Positions 3,051 to 31,826 of a stretch of DNA of 49,776 bases are shown here, in pieces. Numbering within the stretch: the stretch's first letter is position 1; every line of letters begins with the position of its first letter. The translations under genes were made by a program, and so were the position numbers. The notes beneath the pieces are model-generated. The model was given only the letters and a program-made list of their open reading frames with translations, ran no database searches and had not been told where the DNA came from. The stretch is from Chitinophagales bacterium (GTDB lineage Bacteria; Bacteroidota; Bacteroidia; Chitinophagales; Chitinophagaceae). Location: contig CAXNDZ010000001.1 in assembly GCA_964201225.1 (NCBI GenBank), positions 1 to 49,776 on the forward strand, read 5' to 3'.

Positions 3051-5288
3051 ATGAAAAAGCTTTATCTAATTTTAATATTGGTCATGGTGGGTAATGCTAT
3101 TCAACCAAGCATTTCTAATGCCCAGAAATTTACCGCACTTGAAAAAGTGAGATGGGAAAAACAGGCAAACCAAGTAACTATTATTAGAGATGAATGGGGC
3201 ATCCCACACATTTACGGTAAAACAGATGCCGATGCCGTTTTTGGTTTGATGTATGCGCAATGCGAGGAAAATTTTGAGCAAATTGAACTGAATTATTTAG
3301 AAATGTTAGGGAGAACCGCTGAAATAAAAGGAGCTAATGCAATTTATGATGACTTAATGATGCGACTAATTCAAGACAGCAGCGATGCTATTAAAGATTT
3401 TAATAACGCTCCTGCCTGGTTTAAAGCATTACTTGTTGCACATGCGGACGGATTAAATTATTATTTATACAAACACCCTGAGGTCAAACCAAAAGTAATT
3501 AATTACTTCAAACCCTGGTATCATTTAATGTGGACAGATGGAAGTGTTTCCCCGACTCGAACGGGTGGCATTAAAGTAAAGGATGTAAAACAGTTTTATG
3601 GTGTTAATAAAAGTGTAGTTAGTATTTCAGAAGATATTACAACATCGCAACTCGATGAAAACGACCTCTCCCCTTATGATATGGAGGAAAAAACTTTAAA
3701 GGGATCCAATGGATTCGCTATCGCTCCCAAACATAGCAAAAATGGAACCGCCTTATTGTATATTAATCCACATGTTCCTTTTTATTTCAGATCAGAAATG
3801 CACATGTCAAGTGAACAAGGATTAAACGTATACGGTGCTGTTACTTGGGGACAAATGTTTATTTATCAGGGCTTCAATGAGCATTGTGGATGGATGCACA
3901 CTACTGGTTATGCTGATGTAGCAGACGTTTTTGAAGAAAAAGTATCAAAAAAAAATGAGGCATGGTTTTATGAATTGGATAAAAAAACGATCCCGTTACA
4001 AAAAAAACAAATCCCAGTTAGTTATCTTGAAAATGGGGAAAGGCGAACCAAAAATTTTACAACTTATGCATCTGGGCATGGACCCATAATGGGAAGTCGA
4101 CAAGATAAATGGTTAAGCTTAAAGGAAAATAATCGTTCCTTAAATGCTTTGATTGAATGTTGGACTAGAACAAAAGCAAGCAATTTGAAAGAATATCAAA
4201 CTGCATTATCCTTATTATCCAACAACAGCAACAATACCGTATATGCGGATGCAGATGGAAATATTGCTTATTGGCATGGGAATTTTATCCCAAAAAGAAG
4301 TCTGCAATATAATTATAGTTTAACCGTAGACGGTAGTATTAAAAATACCGACTGGCTGGGCGTACATTCATTAAACGAAATTGTTCAAGGCATAAATCCT
4401 ACAAATGGGTGGTTGCAAAATTGCAACGCAACTCCTTTTACTATGGCAGGGAAAGCTAGTCCAAAAGCAAGTAACTACCCTTCATATATGGCGCCAGATG
4501 GTGAAAACGGTCGTGGTATAACTGCGGTAAAATTATTAGAGCAAATAGAAAAAATTGATATAGATGAATTAATCCAGCTTGGATACAACAAACATTTATC
4601 AGCCTTTGATATTTTGCTACCATCCTTTTTAGCGGAGATGAAAAAAGATACACTTACCCCTTCGCTTTCCAAAGCGATTAACTATTTAAACAACTGGGAT
4701 CATAAAGCAGATGTGAATTCCATTGCTACCACCATCGCTATTGAGTGGGCAACTAAATGGAGTTTGGAAATACCCGCTGCAACTACCGAAGAAGAAGGCA
4801 CTCAAATCATAAAAAAATATGAGCGTATGGTGAAAGAGGTAAGTACACAAAAAAAGAAGGAATTATTAAAAACCACTTTGGAACAACTTGAAAAAATGTA
4901 TGGAACATGGGAAATGCCTTGGGGCGAAATTAATCGCTACCAACGGACCAACCCTGGAAAAATGATGGATGATCAGGCCCCAAGCTGGGGAGTGTCTCAA
5001 GCTTCTTCCAAATGGGGATCGCTCCCATCCTTTGATAGTAAGCGATATGATGGCACAATAAAAAGGTATGGCTATAATGGGAATAGCTTTGTTGCTGCTG
5101 TTTCTTTTGGAAAAATCGTTGTTGCAAAGACAATCATCACGGGTGGTCAAAGTAGATTTTCAAATTCGAATCATTTTACAGACCAAGCCCAAGGATTTAT
5201 TGATGGTCAATTTAAAACCATTCATTTTTATAAAGCGGATGTTTTAGCACATAAGGTAACATCATATAAACCAGGATTCATTAAATAG
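3051..5288 (+). CDS. Penicillin acylase family Ntn-hydrolase (S45; PvdQ/AHL-acylase-like)
   Basis: Signal peptide; IIRDEWGIPHIYG, GSNGFAIAP (beta-chain Ser1), INPH and NCNATP motifs. Confidence 0.9.
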   Translation: MKKLYLILILVMVGNAIQPSISNAQKFTALEKVRWEKQANQVTIIRDEWGIPHIYGKTDADAVFGLMYAQCEENFEQIELNYLEMLGRTAEIKGANAIYDDLMMRLIQDSSDAIKDFNNAPAWFKALLVAHADGLNYYLYKHPEVKPKVINYFKPWYHLMWTDGSVSPTRTGGIKVKDVKQFYGVNKSVVSISEDITTSQLDENDLSPYDMEEKTLKGSNGFAIAPKHSKNGTALLYINPHVPFYFRSEMHMSSEQGLNVYGAVTWGQMFIYQGFNEHCGWMHTTGYADVADVFEEKVSKKNEAWFYELDKKTIPLQKKQIPVSYLENGERRTKNFTTYASGHGPIMGSRQDKWLSLKENNRSLNALIECWTRTKASNLKEYQTALSLLSNNSNNTVYADADGNIAYWHGNFIPKRSLQYNYSLTVDGSIKNTDWLGVHSLNEIVQGINPTNGWLQNCNATPFTMAGKASPKASNYPSYMAPDGENGRGITAVKLLEQIEKIDIDELIQLGYNKHLSAFDILLPSFLAEMKKDTLTPSLSKAINYLNNWDHKADVNSIATTIAIEWATKWSLEIPAATTEEEGTQIIKKYERMVKEVSTQKKKELLKTTLEQLEKMYGTWEMPWGEINRYQRTNPGKMMDDQAPSWGVSQASSKWGSLPSFDSKRYDGTIKRYGYNGNSFVAAVSFGKIVVAKTIITGGQSRFSNSNHFTDQAQGFIDGQFKTIHFYKADVLAHKVTSYKPGFIK

Positions 5289-5947
5289 TGGTCATACAAT
5301 TTTGTTAAAAAAGCTATTTTAACAAGGCCTGCTAAATTTTTAACATCAAACTGCTGCATCAATTTTGTTCGGTGTCCTTCAATAGTTCGTTTGCTATGAC
5401 CCACTTCGTTAGCAATTTCCTTACTAGATGCTTCTTGACAAATTCTGACTAATATGTATTTATCATAAATGGTTAATTGTTGCATGAGTTCAATCTGCTT
5501 AATTTTTTCCATCTGATTCATTAATGCAAAAACTTTGTCTGCAATGGTTTTGCAAAAATATACCTTGTCCTGTTGTGCCATCAATAATGCTTTGACCCAT
5601 TCTTTTTCAGAAATATGCCTGGACACAATCACCGAAAAACCATTATCGATTAAGTTATACAAATGCACTTCGTCCTCCTCATTAAATAACACCATAATAG
5701 GGATTCTTTTTTTGATAAGATGAATTGTTTGATAAGTTAATGGGTTACTAAAGTTTAACATGCCACTATCTAGCACAAGTACCTTTGGAAAATCATAACT
5801 GGGATGATCCTCAGACATGATTTCATGTAACATAGGCAGGTTGCGTATAATCTTATACCCATTAAATTGGGGATGCTCATTAATGAGTGCGCCGCATCCC
5901 AATGCATACAGGGTTTGTTGGTCACAAATGATAACTTGACTTTGCAT
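5228..5947 (-). CDS. NarL/LuxR-family response regulator with degenerate receiver domain
   Basis: C-terminal HTH SSKEIANEVGHSKRTIEGHRTKLMQQFDVKNLAGLV; receiver-like N-terminus VIICDQQ...VLVLDSG. Confidence 0.82.
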   Translation of the reverse strand: MQSQVIICDQQTLYALGCGALINEHPQFNGYKIIRNLPMLHEIMSEDHPSYDFPKVLVLDSGMLNFSNPLTYQTIHLIKKRIPIMVLFNEEDEVHLYNLIDNGFSVIVSRHISEKEWVKALLMAQQDKVYFCKTIADKVFALMNQMEKIKQIELMQQLTIYDKYILVRICQEASSKEIANEVGHSKRTIEGHRTKLMQQFDVKNLAGLVKIAFLTKLYDHYLMNPGLYDVTLCAKTSAL

Positions 5948-6206
5948 AAAATGATTTAACTGTTGACAATAGCATAAAGCAACAGAAACAGGCTAATTCA
6001 TTGATAAACAAACTTATGTTTCCGTATCAAAGGCAATAAAATTGATTATAATTACCCCTATTCAAGTGTTTTCTATACCCCTGTCATAGCTTCTAAAAAA
6101 CATAGGATTTATAAGCGCTTAAATTAATACCCTTATTAATTTGTCAGTATTATATATTTTATAACTTCATTGATAATTACTAACCACATTACTATTATAA
6201 CCATCC

Positions 6207-7319
6207 TTGCGTAACCTATTTTATCCTTTTGTTCCAGTGGGACATTTGAAAGTTTGGGTACTTGCTCCGGCATTAGATAACCCAGATCCTAATTTATCAT
6301 ACTACTATGACTTTAGTCAAAGTATTGCCGAATACACCCGTGTATTTGCCGAACTTGATTTACCCTGGAAATGGCAACCTGTTACTTTAGATACTTATAA
6401 AAACATTGTACAAGAAATTGCCAACGAGCGTCAAAAGGGTGTGTTTTTCCCAGTGGTATTAAATTTATGTGATGGTGATGAAATTAATGGTGCCCCAGGA
6501 TTATCCGTTATAAAAGCATTAGAAGAAAAACAACTAGTGTACACGGGGGCGGACGATTATTTTTATGACATTACTACTTCTAAAATTCCAATGAAAATTG
6601 CATTTGATCAAGCAGGCGTGCCGACACCAAAGTGGGAAGCAATAAAAATAAATGAACCCGTAAAGCCGATTGATTTAATAAATAATTTAGGTAGCCCCTT
6701 AATCGTAAAACCTGCAGTGTCAGGTGGTAGCTTGGGATTGGGGATTAAAAATGTAGTTGACAATCCTACTGATTTGCAATTACAATTGGATAAAATGTTT
6801 GAAGGATATCGGGGTTGGAATTTATCAACCGATGGAATAGTTGCAGAATCATTTATACAAGGGCCTGAATATACTGTAATGATTGTGGGTTCACATCATC
6901 AGCCCGAATATGCAAAAATATATCCACCCGTAGAAAGAGTATTTCATGCATCACTTCCTGAGAAAGAAAAAATATTATCCTTTGATCGTTTGTGGGAAAT
7001 TTATGAAGAGGAAACACCCATGCCCGAAGATGAAAATTTTTATCAATACCAATCCAGCCCTGATGAAATAAAGTTAGCCATTCAACAAGTCTCATGGGAT
7101 GCCTATGCGGCAGTGAATGGAAAGGGTTATACAAGAGTAGATGTTCGCGTGGATGCAAACACAGGACAGCCCTATGTTTTAGAAGTAAATGCACAATGTG
7201 GAATTAGTGAGGACGAAAATTATACTTCCATTGGCGCAATTTTAAGATTCGCAAATCAAAGCTTTACTGAATTAATAATACATATTATTAATGATGCATT
7301 TGCCAGACGAAAAAAATAA
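6207..7319 (+). CDS. ATP-grasp ligase (D-Ala-D-Ala-ligase-like fold, non-canonical)
   Basis: NLCDG, YTGA, PLIVKPAVSGGSLG, ESFIQGPEYTV, GYTRVDVR and LEVN motifs; TTG start. Confidence 0.85.
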   Translation: MRNLFYPFVPVGHLKVWVLAPALDNPDPNLSYYYDFSQSIAEYTRVFAELDLPWKWQPVTLDTYKNIVQEIANERQKGVFFPVVLNLCDGDEINGAPGLSVIKALEEKQLVYTGADDYFYDITTSKIPMKIAFDQAGVPTPKWEAIKINEPVKPIDLINNLGSPLIVKPAVSGGSLGLGIKNVVDNPTDLQLQLDKMFEGYRGWNLSTDGIVAESFIQGPEYTVMIVGSHHQPEYAKIYPPVERVFHASLPEKEKILSFDRLWEIYEEETPMPEDENFYQYQSSPDEIKLAIQQVSWDAYAAVNGKGYTRVDVRVDANTGQPYVLEVNAQCGISEDENYTSIGAILRFANQSFTELIIHIINDAFARRKK

Positions 7320-7323
7320 ATTT

Positions 7324-8769
7324 ATGCGCCCCCTCCCCATTTTAAATAACCCAGATAGTTTCAAAAATTTAAAAATTTGTGTATTGCAACCCGACTATAG
7401 TACCTCGGGCGTGGATTATCAAAACTATGATCCCAAACGAGATTTATCGGCCATATTACCTGAAGCAAAAATAGATCACGTTTTTTTAAATAAACTCACT
7501 ACCTACCAGCAACTCAAACAACTCAAGGAAAATAATTACGATATATATATTAATTTATGTGAAGGCTACTTGGAATGGAAAGTACCATCGATTGATGTGA
7601 TTATGAGTTTGGATTTATTGGAACTTCCATACACTGGACCTTCGGTCAATTTATACGACCCGTCTAAAACCATCATGAAGTATTTGGCTTTTTGCGAGGA
7701 TGTAAAAACGCCAGCACATATTTTAATTGAGTCCGAAGCCGACCTTTCATTGCTTCCTGGCAATTTAAATTTCCCGCTTTTTGTAAAACCAGCGAAAGCC
7801 GGTGATAGCTTAGGTGTGGACAACGCTTCTAAAGCAAATAATATAGCAGATTTAACAATAAAGGTTAAAAATATATTAAATGAATTCGGCTCCGCTTTGG
7901 TAGAAGAATATATTGATGGCCGTGAATTTACCGTACTCGTTTGCGGGAATCCTGATGGAAAAACTTGTACGAGCTTCACACCAGTTGAATATATTTTCCC
8001 AGCCGGTTTTGCATTTAAAACTTATGCATTAAAAACTTCTGAATTACACCCTAATGCAAATATTCCGGTGAAGGATCCTGCATTAGCAAAAAAATTACAA
8101 AGTATCGGCGAGCAAGTTTTTATGTCCTTTAATGGTGTGGGCTATGCGCGTATGGATTTTAGAATGGACGCAAAAGGCGAGATTTATTTTTTAGAAATTA
8201 ATTTTACTTGTTCTGTTTTTTATGCAGAAGGGCTTGAAGGTTCCGCTGACTATATATTAATGCATGATGGTGCTGGCCAAAGAGGATTTTTAGAACGCAT
8301 TATTATTGATGGCTTAGCGCGTTTTCAAAAAAAGGAGAAACTATTTGTTATCAAAGGAAATGCGATTTCAGGGTATGGCATGTACGCGAAGTACGATCTT
8401 CCAAAAAATACAATGTTATTTAAAGGGGAGGAAAAAGCGCAACGCATTGTTACCAAAAAATATGTTGATGAAAATTGGGATGAACGCGAAAAATTAAATT
8501 TTAGACGTTATGCTTACCCCATTGGAAAGGAAGTGTATATTTTATGGGACCTACAACCAGAAGCATGGTCGCCACAAAATCATCATTGTGAAGCCAACTG
8601 CTCCTATGTTGGATTAAATGTCATCACAAATAAGGAGGTTAAAAAAGGAGAAGAGCTTACTTTAGATTATGCGCAATTCTTAGACCATACCATGGAACCC
8701 TTTCATTGTAAATGTGGCGCAAGTACTTGCAGAGGCTTAATTAAAGGGAATGTACAATTTTCAAAGTAA
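7324..8769 (+). CDS. ATP-grasp ligase fused to C-terminal SET/post-SET methyltransferase domain
   Basis: ATP-grasp: INLCEG, PLFVKP, EEYIDGREFTV, GYARMDFR, LEIN. SET: GYGMYA, NHHCEAN, GEELTLDY, post-SET CKCGASTCRG. Alternative start at 7291. Confidence 0.87.
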   Translation: MRPLPILNNPDSFKNLKICVLQPDYSTSGVDYQNYDPKRDLSAILPEAKIDHVFLNKLTTYQQLKQLKENNYDIYINLCEGYLEWKVPSIDVIMSLDLLELPYTGPSVNLYDPSKTIMKYLAFCEDVKTPAHILIESEADLSLLPGNLNFPLFVKPAKAGDSLGVDNASKANNIADLTIKVKNILNEFGSALVEEYIDGREFTVLVCGNPDGKTCTSFTPVEYIFPAGFAFKTYALKTSELHPNANIPVKDPALAKKLQSIGEQVFMSFNGVGYARMDFRMDAKGEIYFLEINFTCSVFYAEGLEGSADYILMHDGAGQRGFLERIIIDGLARFQKKEKLFVIKGNAISGYGMYAKYDLPKNTMLFKGEEKAQRIVTKKYVDENWDEREKLNFRRYAYPIGKEVYILWDLQPEAWSPQNHHCEANCSYVGLNVITNKEVKKGEELTLDYAQFLDHTMEPFHCKCGASTCRGLIKGNVQFSK

Positions 8770-8817
8770 TAGTTAAACCTTTTCCTTAAATTGAGGTATC
8801 AAATAATCAGATACGAT

Positions 8818-9588
8818 ATGAAAAAAGTAAGTTTTGGCCTATTCGCCTTTTATATTTTTTGTTTTAATGCAAATGCGCAAACTCCACTCAAAAAAAATAA
8901 TGGCGGTATTACACCTGAAAAATTAGAATCTTGGGTGCCTGTACCTATTATTACTGCAGGTACTAATAACTCAGATGCGCCATCGGATGCAATCGTTTTA
9001 TTTAATGGCAAAGATTTATCCGCTTTTCAAAGAAAAGATGGTAGTCCAGCCAAATGGCGATTAGATCCAGAAGGAACGGTTACTGATATTAAAGGAGCCG
9101 GTGATTTAATTACCAAAAAGGCATTTGGCAACTGTCAATTACATGTAGAATTTAGAACACCTGCAGAAGTAAAAAACAGTGGTCAAGCAAGAGGTAATAG
9201 TGGCGTGTACTTTATGGGTAAGTATGAGGTGCAAGTTTTGGACTCCTATGATAATGTTACCTACTCCAATGGGCAAGCTGCTGCAGTTTATAAGCAATAT
9301 GCGCCATTAGTGAATGCAAGTCGTAAACCAGGTGAGTGGCAAACCTATGATATCATTTTTACAGCACCCATCTTTAAAGAAAATGGTGATATGGAATCAC
9401 CAGGTCGTTTAACTGTTATACATAATGGCGTGCTCGTTCAAAACAATGTTGCTATTTTGGGGCCTACAGATTATGCAACGGTTCCAGTGTATAAAAAGCA
9501 TGATTCTAAACTTCCTTTATTATTCCAGGATCATGGTGATAATGGTAACCCGATTAGTTATCGAAATATTTGGATTAGAGAATTATAA
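8818..9588 (+). CDS. DUF1080 domain protein (3-keto-disaccharide hydrolase family)
   Basis: Signal peptide; APSDAIVLFNG, LHVEF, GNSGVY, YEVQVLDS, GEWQTYDI, LQDHG-like motif and YRNIWIREL. Confidence 0.88.
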   Translation: MKKVSFGLFAFYIFCFNANAQTPLKKNNGGITPEKLESWVPVPIITAGTNNSDAPSDAIVLFNGKDLSAFQRKDGSPAKWRLDPEGTVTDIKGAGDLITKKAFGNCQLHVEFRTPAEVKNSGQARGNSGVYFMGKYEVQVLDSYDNVTYSNGQAAAVYKQYAPLVNASRKPGEWQTYDIIFTAPIFKENGDMESPGRLTVIHNGVLVQNNVAILGPTDYATVPVYKKHDSKLPLLFQDHGDNGNPISYRNIWIREL

Positions 9589-9625: not shown

Positions 9626-9661
9626 AAGCCCTGAATTTAGTCAATGAATTCAGGGCTTTTT
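9626..9661 (+). terminator. Intrinsic terminator downstream of DUF1080 gene
   Basis: AAGCCCTGAATT / AATTCAGGGCTT 12-bp inverted repeat followed by T-run. Confidence 0.8.
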
Positions 9662-9721: not shown

Positions 9722-10453
9722 ATGTTCATGATTACGCTTGGTAAATATCATCCGCCTGCTATTATGGAACCATTCACCCCTTTTTGGTGGGAATGCATGG
9801 TCATGATTATTTTAATCATCACTATTGTGGTTCGCGTGCCATTTCATTTTAAAAAAGTGAATCCTAAAACCTACGCCACTTTTATTGCTTTATTTTTTTC
9901 AATCAATTTTATTGTTGAAAATTATAATGTCTATCAACAAGGTTATTGGAACTTACAGCAAAACCTACCGGTACACTTATGTAGTATTAGTTATTTTTTA
10001 TGTATTGCACTATTAATAAATTACAAGCAATGGGTCGCCGAATGCGTTTACTATTGGGGATTGGCAGGTGGGATTCACGCTTTGCTAACTCCGGAATTTA
10101 CGGTAGGGATGGATGGCTATAATTTTTACGCCTACTTTATTAACCATGCAGGCATGTTGTTAGTCGTCGCCTATATGATTTTACATTTAAATTTTAGGCC
10201 GCGTCCAAAATCTTGGATTAGAATGTTTGGGTACACGCAATTAGTAGCCATTGGTGTTGGTATAGTAAACTATTTAGTAGGCGCAAATTATATGTACCTA
10301 TCTGCAAAACCGGAAGTAGAAAACCCGTTTTTAATTGGCGAATGGCCTTATTATATAATCGTTTTAGAAGCAGTTGCTGTTTTACACTTTTGGGTGTTTT
10401 ATCTTCCATTTGCAAAAAAGAATAAGCAGGAAGCGATTAATGCCTCCTTATAG
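9722..10453 (+). CDS. YwaF / TIGR02206-family integral membrane protein
   Basis: Multiple TM segments; LPVHLCS, ALLTPE, FINH, GANYMYL and WPYYI motifs. Confidence 0.82.
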   Translation: MFMITLGKYHPPAIMEPFTPFWWECMVMIILIITIVVRVPFHFKKVNPKTYATFIALFFSINFIVENYNVYQQGYWNLQQNLPVHLCSISYFLCIALLINYKQWVAECVYYWGLAGGIHALLTPEFTVGMDGYNFYAYFINHAGMLLVVAYMILHLNFRPRPKSWIRMFGYTQLVAIGVGIVNYLVGANYMYLSAKPEVENPFLIGEWPYYIIVLEAVAVLHFWVFYLPFAKKNKQEAINASL

Positions 10454-10921: not shown

Positions 10922-13018
10922 ATGAAAATCATCCTCCTTTCCTTGTCTTTATTGCTGATGCAATCAGCCCATGCACAAAAAACTGCCGACCCGGTCTTAA
11001 GAACAGATAAAATAACCATTGCTAGAGATAGTTTTGGTGTGCCGCATATTTTTGCACCTACAGATCCTGAAGTAGCTTATGGATTGGCTTGGGCGCATGC
11101 GGAAGATGATTTTAACACCATTCAAACATTGATCTTAACTGGTAAGGGAAAATTGGCTACTTATCTTGGCAAAAAAGGGGCTTCTGTTGATTATGTAGTG
11201 GGTTTGCTAAATACAAAAGCAATTGTTAAAGCCCAAATAGGTCAAATGGAACCTGCATTCATCGATTTAATCAAAGGCTATTTGGCAGGATTACACGCTT
11301 ATGCAAAAGCGCATCCTTCAGAATTACTCAACAAACATGTTTTTCCAGTTACCGTAGAGGATTATTTATCTGCAGGTGTTTTTTCAGTAGCCGTATTTTG
11401 TGGGGTTGACAAAGCCTTACCAAAAATATTAAATGGTTCTGTTCCAGCACTACCCATTTTTACAGGGGAAGGTAGTAATGCATTTGCAGTCAATGCAAGC
11501 AAATCAGCGTCGGGTGAAAATATGTTGGTGATTAATGCGCATCAACCCATCGAAGGCGCTACTGCTTTTTATGAAGCACATTTACAAAGTGAAACAGGTT
11601 GGAATATTTTAGGTGGTTTGTTCCCAGGAGCCCCATTAATTTTTCATGGTGCTACACCAAATATTGCTTGGGCGCATACAGTAAACATGCAGGATAAAAT
11701 TGACATGTATCAACTTCAAACTGATAAGCAACATCCGGGAAAATATAAAGTAGACGGCAACTGGCTGAAATTAGAAAAGAGAAGAATAAAATTAAGTGTT
11801 AAAGGGGTACCCATTCCGATCTATAAAACAGCCTATACTTCGATATATGGCCCTACTGCTGCAACACCATCAGGACAATATTTTTCAATAAGATTGCCTT
11901 CCTTAATGGATGCAGGTGCCTTGCAACAATGGTATGCAATGAATAAAGCACAAAACTATACACAGTTCAAAGCTGCTTTAAATCAAAATCATTTGGCCAT
12001 GTTTAATATTGTGTATGCGGATAAAAACGATACTATATTTTATATTTCAAATAGCAAGATGCCTTACCGTAATCCCGATACCAGCTATCATTGGAATTCA
12101 ACGGTTCCCGGGAATACCATGGCAACGCTTTGGACTAAGTTTAAACCCCTTAATGAATTACCACAATATTTAAATCCGACAAGTGGTTATTTATTTAACA
12201 CCAACCACTCGCCATTTTTAGCTACTGCCGAAAATGAAAATTTAAATCGCGCAAAGTTTGATGTAAATGATGGCTATGAACTTACACATAATAACAGAAG
12301 CCGACGCGCTAAGGATTTAATTGATCAACTTGATAAAATTAGTTACGCCGATTTAAAGAGAATCAAATTTGATCGTCAATTGCCAAATCCAATTTTATAC
12401 CCTTACGGATATACTTCGGATACTTTATTTATGGTAGATGAATCCAAGTACCCACAACTAGCCCCATTGATTGTTAGTTTAAAAAAATGGGACCACAATG
12501 CAGTTGCTGAAAGTAATGGCGCTTTGATTTATAATTTGGCTTACTATTCCATCCCTAAATTAATGGGTGGTCGCAAAAATAGTGATGAAGCTAAAAGTGA
12601 CAAGCTTAGTATGGACGAAGCGGTAGCTACTTTTCAGTATGCGCATGATTATTTAATGAAAAATTTTAATCGATTAGATGTTACTTTAGGTGATATGCAA
12701 AAGTTAGTGCGTGGTGATGAAGAATGGCCACAAGGAGGGATGCCCGATGTATTAGCTGCCGTGCAAGGTCAAGCTTATGGCACTGTAGGTAAGCGTAAAA
12801 TGGTGAGTGGTGATGCGTATATAGGATTTGTAAAGTTTCCTAAAAATGGCGGACTACCCTTAATTGAAACAGTGAATACTTTTGGCGCAAGTTCCATTAA
12901 AGGAAATAAACACTTTGCTGATCAACGCCCATTATACCAAGCGCAACAGTTAAAAAAGATGACCTTGGATAAAAATGAAGTGCTGAAAAATGCGGAAAGC
13001 GTTTATCACCCACAATAA
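10922..13018 (+). CDS. Penicillin acylase family Ntn-hydrolase (second paralog)
   Basis: Signal peptide; RDSFGVPHIF, AHAEDDF, GSNAFAV (Ser1), INAHQP and FNTNHSP. Confidence 0.9.
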   Translation: MKIILLSLSLLLMQSAHAQKTADPVLRTDKITIARDSFGVPHIFAPTDPEVAYGLAWAHAEDDFNTIQTLILTGKGKLATYLGKKGASVDYVVGLLNTKAIVKAQIGQMEPAFIDLIKGYLAGLHAYAKAHPSELLNKHVFPVTVEDYLSAGVFSVAVFCGVDKALPKILNGSVPALPIFTGEGSNAFAVNASKSASGENMLVINAHQPIEGATAFYEAHLQSETGWNILGGLFPGAPLIFHGATPNIAWAHTVNMQDKIDMYQLQTDKQHPGKYKVDGNWLKLEKRRIKLSVKGVPIPIYKTAYTSIYGPTAATPSGQYFSIRLPSLMDAGALQQWYAMNKAQNYTQFKAALNQNHLAMFNIVYADKNDTIFYISNSKMPYRNPDTSYHWNSTVPGNTMATLWTKFKPLNELPQYLNPTSGYLFNTNHSPFLATAENENLNRAKFDVNDGYELTHNNRSRRAKDLIDQLDKISYADLKRIKFDRQLPNPILYPYGYTSDTLFMVDESKYPQLAPLIVSLKKWDHNAVAESNGALIYNLAYYSIPKLMGGRKNSDEAKSDKLSMDEAVATFQYAHDYLMKNFNRLDVTLGDMQKLVRGDEEWPQGGMPDVLAAVQGQAYGTVGKRKMVSGDAYIGFVKFPKNGGLPLIETVNTFGASSIKGNKHFADQRPLYQAQQLKKMTLDKNEVLKNAESVYHPQ

Positions 13019-19130: not shown

Positions 19131-20360
19131 CTATTTTTTAGCGGGTAATGCAGCTAATAATTTTTTTAAGAACTCATCAATCGAATCACCCTCAATCCAT
19201 CTTACTACCACTACTAAATCATTCACTTCGTCCACATAAATGATATTAGTTCCATTACCCATGTGCGCATAGGCAGAAGCGGGTGCTGATGGATATAATT
19301 TTTTATCTGTATTTAAAAAATAATTCATGAACCCATATTCTGGATTCACCGATGTGGGGGTGGTCGCTTTTTTAAACCAGCCGGAAGACAACAACTGTTT
19401 ACCTTGCCAATTTCCCTTGTGTAAAGTCAACAACCCAAACCTTGCCATATCATAGGCATTGATAAACATACCGCCACCAAAGTGGCCCCCGCCACTCACC
19501 GACTGAACTGGCTTGCCATCTAACACTATCCAGGAAGTTTCATAGCCTGCCCATGACCAAGTATTACTTGCACCAATAGGTTGCATGATATTTTCTCTAA
19601 GCACTTCAGGAAGTGGTTTATGCCATACAGCAGTCATTGCAAGTGCTAATGCATTTACACGGGTATCATTATATTTATAACTTGTACCGGGCTCATTTCT
19701 TTTTCGTGTTAGCCATTCTGCTGAATTTTCAGACGGTCTATCTGCCCAATCCGGTTTGCCCCACAATTCACCTTCCCAATCACTGGTTTGTCGAAGTAAA
19801 TGATCCCAACTAATTTTTTTATTATGTGGGGAAGCAAAAGGTTGAATAAAATCTTTGATTGCAATTGGACTTTGATTCGTATTCATCAAAGTAGTATAAG
19901 GTTGGATGGGAGGCATATAGTTATTTACCTTATCATCAATGGAAGAAATTAACCCCTTATCAAGGGCAAGTCCAACAATGCTTGATACCCAGCTTTTAGT
20001 GACACTATTACAAGTTTCAACAATAGTAGGATCACCCCACTCAGCAATGATATACCCCTTATATATAATCAAACCGCTCAATCCGCCTCGATCCATCATT
20101 GGACCCACAGGGTCCCCAAATGGCTCTTTCGCATACTGCATAGCTTGTGTAATTCTCGCATTCCTCGGAAACTTAGATTCATGCTGCGTTGAGAATTGAA
20201 TAGCCTCCTTAATTTTATTAGTATCAATTTTAAAAAATGTAGGTGATTTTCTCTCCCAATTATTTGCAGCTGGAAAATAAGATGCATCCTGTGCATTCGT
20301 AAAAATGGCGGTGAAAATAAAAATGACAAATAACTTTATTCCTTTTTTTAATGCTTTCAT
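19131..20360 (-). CDS. Serine hydrolase (beta-lactamase/PBP family, AmpC-like)
   Basis: SVTK (SxxK), HLLRQTS, YND and DMARFG; signal peptide from MKALKK (ORF track start 20435). Confidence 0.85.
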   Translation of the reverse strand: MKALKKGIKLFVIFIFTAIFTNAQDASYFPAANNWERKSPTFFKIDTNKIKEAIQFSTQHESKFPRNARITQAMQYAKEPFGDPVGPMMDRGGLSGLIIYKGYIIAEWGDPTIVETCNSVTKSWVSSIVGLALDKGLISSIDDKVNNYMPPIQPYTTLMNTNQSPIAIKDFIQPFASPHNKKISWDHLLRQTSDWEGELWGKPDWADRPSENSAEWLTRKRNEPGTSYKYNDTRVNALALAMTAVWHKPLPEVLRENIMQPIGASNTWSWAGYETSWIVLDGKPVQSVSGGGHFGGGMFINAYDMARFGLLTLHKGNWQGKQLLSSGWFKKATTPTSVNPEYGFMNYFLNTDKKLYPSAPASAYAHMGNGTNIIYVDEVNDLVVVVRWIEGDSIDEFLKKLLAALPAKK

Positions 20361-20476
20361 ATTTAAAATATTTTGGATCCGGGAATTTAAATTTATTGAT
20401 TTGCTAGTTAAAATATTGTTGATCAACATGGTCAAACTAAAAATTCATATTTTATTTTCAACTGGTCCTGTAAGTA

Positions 20477-30170: not shown

Positions 30171-31706
30171 TTAATTTTCGATTGTTAAGTGATATTCTTG
30201 AATTAATGCAGGATTTTCAGGGGTCAAGGTAAAGCTTAATTTTAGTTTCCCTTTTTCACAATCAATGATACAATAGCCTCTTAATTGATTTTCGGGAATC
30301 ATCGTATTCACTTTAATGATATTGCCCATTTTTTTAAAAATAGCATCCGCTGATTTTTTTAAATCTTCAATAGGATAATCATCAAAAAAGTTTTCGGCAA
30401 ATATTGGGGTTGATTGATCCCAATGCGTAATAATTTTTGCCAATTGTGTTTGTCTTTCAATTAAGATATTGGAAACCTTAACAAGCCTTGGTTTTAATTG
30501 TGCTAATTGAATAAGAGTATCTAATACAATAAGATTAATTCTTGAGGTGGGTGCATAAGTTACATTCGCAAATAATATAACGCCAATACCAAAATCAGGT
30601 AAAAAGCGCCAATTGGATCCAAATCCAGGCAAGCCGCCACTATGCCCAACACTCTTTTTCTTTTCTGCATCTATCGTCCAATTCAATCCATAGCTATAAC
30701 TACTTGTGGTGGCCAATTTTTTTCCACTCGGAAAAATTGTATTTGGATTTAATCCAATAAAAAATGCGGGTTGGTGCATCTCTCTAAGGCTGCTCCTTTT
30801 AATGGGAAAGGTTTGCGCGTCATCCCTAGCAGGCCAGGCATCCTCATGTAATGCAACATATTTACTAAACATATCAATAGAAGTAATCATACCTCCCATC
30901 GCACCATAAATCCCATTTTTTAATGGTTGTTCCTTACGCCATTGGTCATTTATATAACGATATCCATTCGCAAATACATTTTTAGGGACACTGGTATATT
31001 CATAAGTGGTCCCCTGCATTGACAAAGGCGCTAAAATATTTTTAGCAATATAGTTGTCATACGTCAACCCAGATACTTTATGAATAATATAACCTAGCAT
31101 CGCAAATCCCAGATTACTATACTCATATTCCAAGCCTGCAGTATTCGATAAAGACAATTGATTTTTGATTAATGTATTTAATTCCTCTTCTGTATCCTCC
31201 AGTTGTCTATCCCCCCAAGGATTATCTTCAGGAAAACCTGCGCTATGTGTCATCAAATGTCGAATAGTCATCAATGGTGCATCTTTAGTAAGTCCTTGCC
31301 CTTTTAATGCGGGTATATATTTTTCAACCGCATCGTCTAATTGTAACTTTCCTTCATCTCTCAAATTTAAAATAGCTAAAGCGGTAAAACTTTTTGACAT
31401 GGAAGCAATACGGAACATGGAAGCAGAGGAAGCTGGTATTTTTTCTTCCAAATTAGCATAGCCACCATTTCCTTTATAAACTAGTTGCCCATCTACCACA
31501 ATACCAAAGGCATAACCAGGAAAATGATGCTGAAGTGCGTAATCTTTATATAATTGTTCTATTAAAGGAAATGTTTTTGCAATACGTTCATTTCGAGTAG
31601 CATCTTGGTAGGATGATTTTGTATCCAGCTTAGCTACTTGCGCATCCAAAATAAAGCCATTGACTATTAAAATAAGCATCAAGAAATAACGTAAGTTATA
31701 TTTCAT
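30171..31706 (-). CDS. Serine hydrolase (beta-lactamase family)
   Basis: FRIASMSK, LMTHSAG, YEYSNLG and GHSGGLPGF; signal peptide. Confidence 0.88.
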   Translation of the reverse strand: MKYNLRYFLMLILIVNGFILDAQVAKLDTKSSYQDATRNERIAKTFPLIEQLYKDYALQHHFPGYAFGIVVDGQLVYKGNGGYANLEEKIPASSASMFRIASMSKSFTALAILNLRDEGKLQLDDAVEKYIPALKGQGLTKDAPLMTIRHLMTHSAGFPEDNPWGDRQLEDTEEELNTLIKNQLSLSNTAGLEYEYSNLGFAMLGYIIHKVSGLTYDNYIAKNILAPLSMQGTTYEYTSVPKNVFANGYRYINDQWRKEQPLKNGIYGAMGGMITSIDMFSKYVALHEDAWPARDDAQTFPIKRSSLREMHQPAFFIGLNPNTIFPSGKKLATTSSYSYGLNWTIDAEKKKSVGHSGGLPGFGSNWRFLPDFGIGVILFANVTYAPTSRINLIVLDTLIQLAQLKPRLVKVSNILIERQTQLAKIITHWDQSTPIFAENFFDDYPIEDLKKSADAIFKKMGNIIKVNTMIPENQLRGYCIIDCEKGKLKLSFTLTPENPALIQEYHLTIEN

Positions 31707-31826
31707 AAAAAACAATTTCTCTAATTTAAAACATATTTCATTAGCCCATTACCTTTTATAAAAAAATAGTGCTTCAAGTAGGTAGATTAGTACTTTTTTG
31801 CTAATTTCCTAACACAAATTTATACT

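Follow-up and report, generated by a model that had tools for sequence, protein, structure and literature searches.

Two well-described routes make small amides by combining ATP-grasp ligation with methylation, with no involvement of a nonribosomal peptide synthetase (NRPS), namely the mycosporine-like amino acid route with its MysC and MysD ligases and the anserine route, in which carnosine synthase acts with a methyltransferase. Both use Rossmann-fold methyltransferases, and the mycosporine route also needs a cyclase gene. SET domains are a different methyltransferase fold, and to our knowledge their roles in free-living bacteria are largely open. BurB, the SET methyltransferase of the bacterial dimethylsulfoniopropionate (DMSP) methylation route (PDB 9l4t and 9l4v), S-methylates free methionine to S-methylmethionine (PMC12542666, PMC7496086). 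Here we describe a module in which SET domains are tied to ATP-grasp ligases, found in a 49,776-nucleotide stretch of the genome of a Chitinophagales bacterium of the family Chitinophagaceae (assembly GCA_964201225.1, contig CAXNDZ010000001.1, positions 1 to 49,776 of the forward strand; the whole stretch is called the window below). The window carries two adjacent ligase genes, A and B, the second fused to a SET domain, and a stand-alone SET gene, S, is the third part of the module. On a modest balance of probability, A, B and S together specify a pathway, independent of the ribosome and of NRPS enzymes, that builds a small methylated amide from free amino acids or amines. No description of a Ddl-like ligase with a SET domain was found in the literature searched, a search that did not extend to the 2009 ATP-grasp survey (Iyer et al.) or to work by the same group on the gene neighbourhoods of bacterial SET domains, either of which may mention the architecture.

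Gene A (6207..7319, plus strand) starts with TTG and encodes a ligase of 370 residues that Pfam, NCBIfam and alignment place among Ddl-fold ATP-grasp enzymes. Gene B (7324..8769, plus strand) encodes an ATP-grasp domain (7366..8331, plus strand, residues 26-347) followed by a SET and post-SET domain (8332..8757, plus strand, residues 348-489). The B reading frame is open from an ATG at 7291 (492 residues), from which the residues of B are numbered here, and when the starts at 63 loci are compared, the ATG at 7324 (Met12), 4 nucleotides past the A stop codon, emerges as the likely start, because an M-R-x-L-P start is common to relatives without the upstream ATG; B then has 481 residues. A reading of the window made earlier from the sequence alone had described two adjacent, co-oriented ATP-grasp genes, and all of the motifs that it quoted were located: NLCDG (86-90), GYTRVDVR (307-314) and EVNAQCG (326-332) in A, NLCEG (88-92), GYARMDFR (284-291) and EINFTCS (302-308) in the ligase domain of B, and GYG (361-363), NHHCEAN (430-436), ELTLDY (455-460) and CKCGASTC (473-480) in its SET domain. 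The two proteins are 27% identical to each other. Their 19-residue hydropathy maxima are 1.21 (A) and 0.88 (B), and therefore no signal peptide or membrane helix is predicted in either by this crude test, in agreement with the cytoplasmic location that had been proposed. Close relatives are found in lake and river genomes and carry the database labels Sediminibacterium or Chitinophagaceae. Gene B appears to be split or cut in two assemblies, into 325 and 182 residues in one (L025) and with a tblastn match spread over 2 kb in the other (L051), breaks that may represent assembly error or decay.

The nearest characterized relatives of both ligases are the Ddl and Van enzymes (PF07478; PDB 8evv, 7u9k, 2dln and 3se7), with which they have in common the fold and the residues for ATP, magnesium and acyl-phosphate chemistry. 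The best family, sequence and fold matches of A and B are all to Ddl, and relatives are labelled 'D-alanine-D-alanine ligase' in databases, as would be expected if the genes encoded a variant of the cell-wall ligase making D-Ala-D-Ala or, in the manner of Van enzymes, D-Ala-D-X. The Pfam family Dala_Dala_lig_C matches A with 60 bits and B with 76 bits. The best NCBIfam Ddl scores, at 81-88 bits, reach only about a third of the cut-offs of 243-246. An AlphaFold model of B (pLDDT 90.3, pTM 0.88) is closest in fold to Ddl, itself an enzyme acting on small molecules (Z 29.6, root-mean-square deviation (rmsd) 2.6 over 300 residues), followed by LysX/ArgX (Z 22.3), L-amino-acid ligases (19.5-19.7) and RimK (19.4); the three-domain ATP-grasp fold is thus taken from the model for B, and from Pfam and PDB sequence matches for A.

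Alignment to Escherichia coli DdlB, whose residues we take to divide into an ATP, magnesium and catalytic set and a D-Ala subsite as in the DdlB literature, separates what the two ligases have kept from what they have lost. All eight residues of the first set (K97, K144, E180, E187, R255, D257, E270 and N272) are kept in both proteins, as K126, K168, E214, E221, R310, D312, E326 and N328 in A and as K126, K166, E205, E212, R287, D289, E302 and N304 in B; these columns do not vary in 24 of 24 A-family sequences and vary little or not at all across 27 diverse B-family sequences. The residues of the D-Ala site (E15, H63, S150, Y216, P275, S281 and L282) are all replaced in A and in B. His63 is D89 in A and E91 in B, Tyr216 is W263 and T249, Pro275 is Cys in both, and the Ddl motif E-x-N-T-x-P-G has become E-x-N-x-x-C in B. 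Four true Ddl rows keep the same site, although position 282 is Met or Val in two of them. Thus A and B are predicted, from sequence and model, to be Ddl-fold ATP-grasp ligases with full acyl-phosphate machinery and without a D-Ala site.

The phylogeny points the same way. In an IQ-TREE tree of 56 rows chosen from a 140-row FastTree set, rooted on RimK and including only 5 true Ddl sequences, the true Ddl enzymes form one branch (95/99) that holds neither A nor B, and A and B together form another (93/89), the bootstraps not being fully settled. The genome also encodes a canonical Ddl elsewhere (C78:4616-5599) with the motif EVNTVPG. A further PF07478 match in the genome, the fourth (C8), was set aside by eye as resembling a carbamoyl-phosphate synthase large subunit. 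No mur, fts or ddl family matched any of the 37 open reading frames (ORFs) of the window scanned with Pfam, so that the absence of cell-wall genes nearby, like the separation from Ddl, stands as first proposed; the window does hold two Beta-lactamase-family serine hydrolases (19131-20435 and 30171-31715). A relative occurs in the amoeba Vermamoeba, which has no peptidoglycan. Taken with the SET fusion, these observations make a cell-wall ligase variant extremely improbable.

A third branch of the tree (93/92) consists of Ddl-like enzymes whose genes are linked to KamA/GNAT or to Peptidase_Mx. These resemble the module ligases in having an acidic residue at the His63 position and Trp at that of Tyr216, and are often in tandem, but they form a separate branch, and no SET genes were seen at their loci. 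Such genes are widespread (L163-L200); some have a Peptidase_Mx gene as partner and others form tandems with KamA and GNAT genes. No assay of these ligases was found.

Linkage ties A to B. Of the 66 loci found with B, 63 are informative, and in all 63 the gene immediately upstream of B is A; the three dropped from the count are L066, a true Ddl that the search pattern had caught, and L009 and L024, whose sequence starts within B or too near it. Four hundred Bacteroidota genomes, sampled evenly and each at least 90% complete, were searched, with B matches accepted up to E 1e-30: 20 gave a match to B, 18 to S and 11 to A. All matches to S and to A lie beside B, and neither gene was found in the other 380 genomes. 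The nine genomes with B and without A constitute one genus, whose small SET protein shares 96% identity with an entry from Chlorobium ferrooxidans. The sequence-only reading had treated the ligase pair as the unit, and the pair is indeed conserved, with A always beside B in its 11 genomes; because these nine Chlorobium-like genomes lack A, however, B is the core of the module, A is optional, and S accompanies B more often than A does. Among 60 genomes of the window's own genus, B occurs in 35 and S in 26, all of the latter among the 35. Two assemblies of the genus have S and B on one contig, with about 60 kb between them, and S has moved away from B in this clade.

Gene fusions join the same parts. 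In a survey of 150 representatives of distant relatives, about 75 are ligase-SET fusions, eight are ligase-SET-S, three are S-ligase, one is A-B (P0157) and one is ligase-SET-S-ligase (P0167), and a protein from Mesostigma (P0142) consists of four S repeats, a ligase and a SET domain. Eukaryote names were attached to four clusters of the 30 representatives looked up (Vermamoeba, Mesostigma, Closterium and Volvox), and in the Atlas B-like clusters occur in Bacteroidota and Acidobacteriota and SET-less clusters in Chloroflexota. In one locus (L125:6440-9022) an uninterrupted frame of 860 residues encodes a TIR_2 domain together with ligase-SET-S, which may be a true fusion or a chance read-through; this frame is followed by a 103-residue fragment like the start of B and then by a 1362-residue gene that begins TIR-like. 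A plasmid collection yielded no B relative at E 1e-15 and six distant relatives of S. Scans of viral contigs turned up true Ddl or distant Ddl-like genes and a single B-branch ligase without a SET domain, the latter on a giant-virus contig (L201:3375-4355) and related to the C-terminal ligase of P0167. Other giant-virus contigs (L076-L078) carry a canonical Ddl close to the one in this genome, and the best viral fold match to B is a Bodo saltans virus protein.

The stand-alone gene S, which the earlier reading did not include, encodes 160-180 residues; in eight of the 63 loci, all among the more distant ones, it immediately precedes A. The window's genome has three stand-alone SET genes, and S (G000:C83:5288-5788, L067, minus strand) is on another contig; in the closest relatives it adjoins a TMEM175-type channel gene and a 443-residue ORF, apart from the ligase pair. 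The other two (G000:C12:580-963, L069, and G000:C36:2353-2763, L070) are without post-SET cysteines and are unrelated to the module in the tree, so that four SET domains in total are encoded in this 1.9-Mb genome of a free-living bacterium. As a single sequence S matches BurB with 64 bits (E 1e-16), against 31 bits for the best histone enzyme, and as a profile with 84 bits (E 9e-23), against 44 bits for the next match. It groups with the Eleftheria BurB orthologue in a FastTree analysis (0.95), the fused SET family being separate (0.985). Common to S and BurB are T-x-Q-I, Y-x-S/A-T-E and the post-SET motif, and T73, H93, Y124 and H138 are kept. By sequence, then, BurB is the nearest solved relative of S, and searches of the PDB and the literature turned up no other small-molecule SET enzyme. 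This likeness bears on the chemistry to be expected. The sequence-only reading had taken SET domains to be amine methyltransferases, which is too narrow, and N-methylation is not a given, because BurB methylates the sulfur of a free amino acid.

The likeness does not extend to gene context. BurB-type genes sit with aminotransferase, aldehyde dehydrogenase and polyketide synthase (PKS)/NRPS genes, whereas S sits with ATP-grasp ligases, and no linked gene of the DMSP route (decarboxylase, aminotransferase or dehydrogenase) recurs beside S in the loci examined, unlinked copies lying outside the search. BurB binds methionine through main-chain atoms (PMC12542666), and therefore sequence cannot assign a substrate to S or to the fused SET domain. 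Relatives of S are named from Okeania, Symploca and Methylococcales. A BurB-like SET gene also heads an operon on a Tabrizicola plasmid (L225:1124-6128) with a GHMP kinase, a pyridoxal-phosphate enzyme, a DMT transporter and an alanine-racemase-like gene, which, judged by its genes, is another small-molecule context for the BurB-like group.

The SET domain of B matches Pfam SET with 33 bits and has the hallmarks of the family: GxG, NHxC (NHHCEAN at the position of NHxCxPN), ELxxDY, a post-SET CxCx4C and the SET fold, with a predicted zinc site formed by C433, C473, C475 and C480. Across 27 diverse sequences H431 is kept in 27, Y460 in 24 and the three post-SET cysteines in 27. Ratios of nonsynonymous to synonymous substitution (dN/dS) of 0.015-0.098 for A, the B ligase and the B SET domain (14 comparisons with five close loci) indicate purifying selection on the SET domain. 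The complete SET and post-SET domain described in the sequence-only reading is thus borne out, and the domain is predicted to be a methyltransferase dependent on S-adenosylmethionine. It has in common with the histone lysine methyltransferases KMT2/MLL and SETD2/Set2 the fold, NHxC, a Tyr at the catalytic position and the post-SET zinc cysteines. Where KMT2 has (A/S)-R-F-I-N-H-S-C, however, the fused domain has W-x-P-x-N-H, which together with YAYP is specific to its family, and unlike those enzymes it is fused to a ligase, has no signal peptide and belongs to a free-living host.

What the module would make can be set out in steps. Its fold, residues, linkage and fusions are read from sequence and models, and from these we infer the substrates and the order of events. 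By analogy with BurB and methionine, S would methylate a free amino acid; B, following ATP-grasp chemistry, would activate a carboxylate with ATP as an acyl-phosphate and join it to an amine; the fused SET domain would methylate the ligation product; and A, where present, would contribute one more unit or an alternative one. Export of the product would fall, in some lineages, to an adjacent ABC or major facilitator superfamily (MFS) transporter. More tentatively, the substrate may be cationic, because His63 of Ddl is replaced by Asp or Glu within an acidic N-L-C-D/E-G segment. The sequence-only reading had left the product as either a small methylated metabolite or a protein tag, and the evidence leans to the metabolite.

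Several observations weigh against this pathway. The fused SET domain, judged by profile and model, is tied between BurB and the histone lysine methyltransferases, so that BurB is the tied-best match here and not the clear one that it is for S: profile scores are 61 bits for BurB and 58 bits for KMT2/Set2, fold comparison gives Z 10.0 for BurB (rmsd 3.2, 107 residues) and 10.7 for KMT2/Set2 (rmsd 4.1, 131 residues), and the best TM-score, 0.63, is to BurB, yet BurB ranks 28th by E-value. Gene S is about 31% identical to the BurB orthologue and differs from BurB at H72, S88, G89, R133 and the G-R-G-A loop; its substrate is therefore not fixed by the likeness. Most S proteins also lack the GxG of SET motif I. 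S was not found in nine of the 35 B-positive genomes of the genus, several of them 99-100% complete, and the 20 B-positive genomes of the phylum sample represent about nine genera, whose members, being kin, are not independent. B-type ligases without a SET domain occur in about 18 metagenome loci (L135-L159), a clade in which several lie beside a family 4 glycoside hydrolase gene and whose ligases are natural SET-less controls. In the loci examined, the module has no recurrent neighbour for precursor supply, such as a decarboxylase, aminotransferase or racemase.

Some of these points would sit as well with a role in protein or peptide tagging, in which the ligases, like RimK, LysX or tubulin ligases, attach amino acids to a protein of the cell, and methylation by the SET domains falls on that protein or on the tag. 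The nearness of the fused SET domain to histone enzymes and the dearth of recurrent supply genes both favour tagging, as do the eukaryotic forms, with four S repeats in the Mesostigma protein, and the TIR domain in the frame of L125. A metagenome locus with the order A, S+S, B, MFS (L136:723-10500, on a contig of 62% GC) adds four tandem HEAT-repeat genes directly upstream of A. Against tagging, the fold is nearer to Ddl than to RimK or LysX by 7-10 Z units, and the RimK-family model TIGR00768 scores A at 19 bits, far under its cut-off of 143. Nor did a common precursor peptide emerge, since 143 small ORFs from around the module, taken from 28 loci, gave no match between distant loci. In this the module differs from graspetide and other ribosomally synthesized and post-translationally modified peptide systems, with their conserved precursor gene beside the ligase, and also from RimK/LysX, as no substrate or carrier gene is linked to it in those loci, although a substrate may be encoded elsewhere. 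Three tandem small ORFs of 55-63 residues with an L-W-N-I-Q-R motif lie just downstream of B in one locus (L107:5408-6030) and were not seen in the other 27. With S being BurB-like and exporters adjacent in three lineages, tagging is plausible in outline and on the whole unlikely.

The optional nature of A raises another explanation, that B is the only working enzyme, A its partner or regulatory subunit, and one or both SET domains bind their ligand and do not methylate it. A was never found without B and B often occurs without A; one A-B fusion exists, S mostly lacks GxG, and some B ligases have no SET domain, all of which fit such an arrangement. It is hard to reconcile, however, with the eight invariant catalytic residues of A, the conservation of the fused SET histidine, tyrosine and zinc cysteines, and dN/dS below 0.1, and we consider it very unlikely. 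A complex prediction for B (24-490) with A (10-370), both given as alignments, scored 0.00; it is uninformative on pairing and was used neither for nor against any reading.

The transporters near the module are consistent with export of a small methylated amide. A full ABC exporter follows B in eight of the nine Chlorobium-like loci, the contig ending in the ninth, and a second SET gene, of 120 residues, is present in eight of the nine. Among the 11 genomes of the phylum sample with A and B, an ABC_membrane_3 gene without an ATPase domain adjoins B in five; its close orthologues (at least 50% identity) occur in those five genomes only, and distant relatives (24-28%) in 19 others. The pathway is not helped by the window's own genome, which, at 78% completeness, gave no match to this gene. 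The same transporters would also suit a module whose ligation, methylation and export act on a lipid head group, a polymer of the envelope, or a toxic amine or amino-acid analogue taken up by the cell, and which yields no new soluble compound. The patchy, optional distribution (20 of 400 genomes in the phylum, 35 of 60 in the genus) agrees with such a role, and so does a TMEM164-type acyltransferase gene two genes downstream (9722-10453) in close relatives. That neighbour was not seen in the 20 phylum-sample loci, however, A and B are predicted to be soluble, and relatives occur in an amoeba and in green algae with very different envelopes. Modification of lipids, polymers or toxic amines is accordingly quite unlikely. 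No cyclase gene of the kind used in the mycosporine route recurs beside the module in the loci examined.

The remaining genes around A and B are local company. A divergent LuxR-type regulator gene (5228..5947, minus strand) is present in 52 of 67 stretches of close relatives and is not beside the module in the 20 phylum-sample loci, and is probably not part of it. A co-oriented gene of the 3-keto-disaccharide hydrolase family (8791..9588, plus strand), with a terminator-like hairpin 3' of it (9626-9658), is a neighbour in close relatives only, and the same holds for the order of the TMEM164-type gene and of two penicillin-amidase-family (Ntn hydrolase) genes that flank the region (3051-5288 and 10922-13018). 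All of these were rejected as parts of the module because they were not seen in distant loci. Fourteen freshwater RNA runs contain the stretch. In the four examined, contigs cover parts of A and B, and in three of these they bridge the A/B junction, although such contigs cannot prove transcription or show strand, level or a single transcript; none of the runs covers 5585-6018, a gap to which no meaning is attached. Contigs of the four runs begin at 6191-6196, a weak hint of a transcript 5' end just upstream of A (6191..6206, plus strand); a promoter scan restricted to sigma-70 types stayed at chance level (20 versus 22.8).

The module is real, ordinary in its chemistry and unstudied as a system, one in which gene adjacency, co-occurrence and fusion link two SET subfamilies with a distinct family of Ddl-fold ligases. 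It accounts for the wrong label, D-Ala-D-Ala ligase or protein-lysine methyltransferase, that many database entries bear, and as a small soluble system of two or three proteins it is open to direct screening. The module is common in freshwater Chitinophagaceae, to judge from the genus sampled, and reaches green algae and amoebae. A more specific and rather doubtful version of the pathway has the product of S, S-methylmethionine or another methylated amino acid, joined by the ligases into a sulfonium- or betaine-type di- or tripeptide and methylated further by the fused SET domain. If this were true, the product would be a zwitterionic solute or signal of lake Chitinophagaceae, Chlorobium, some cyanobacteria, green algae and amoebae, and would give freshwater methylated sulfur a new fate.

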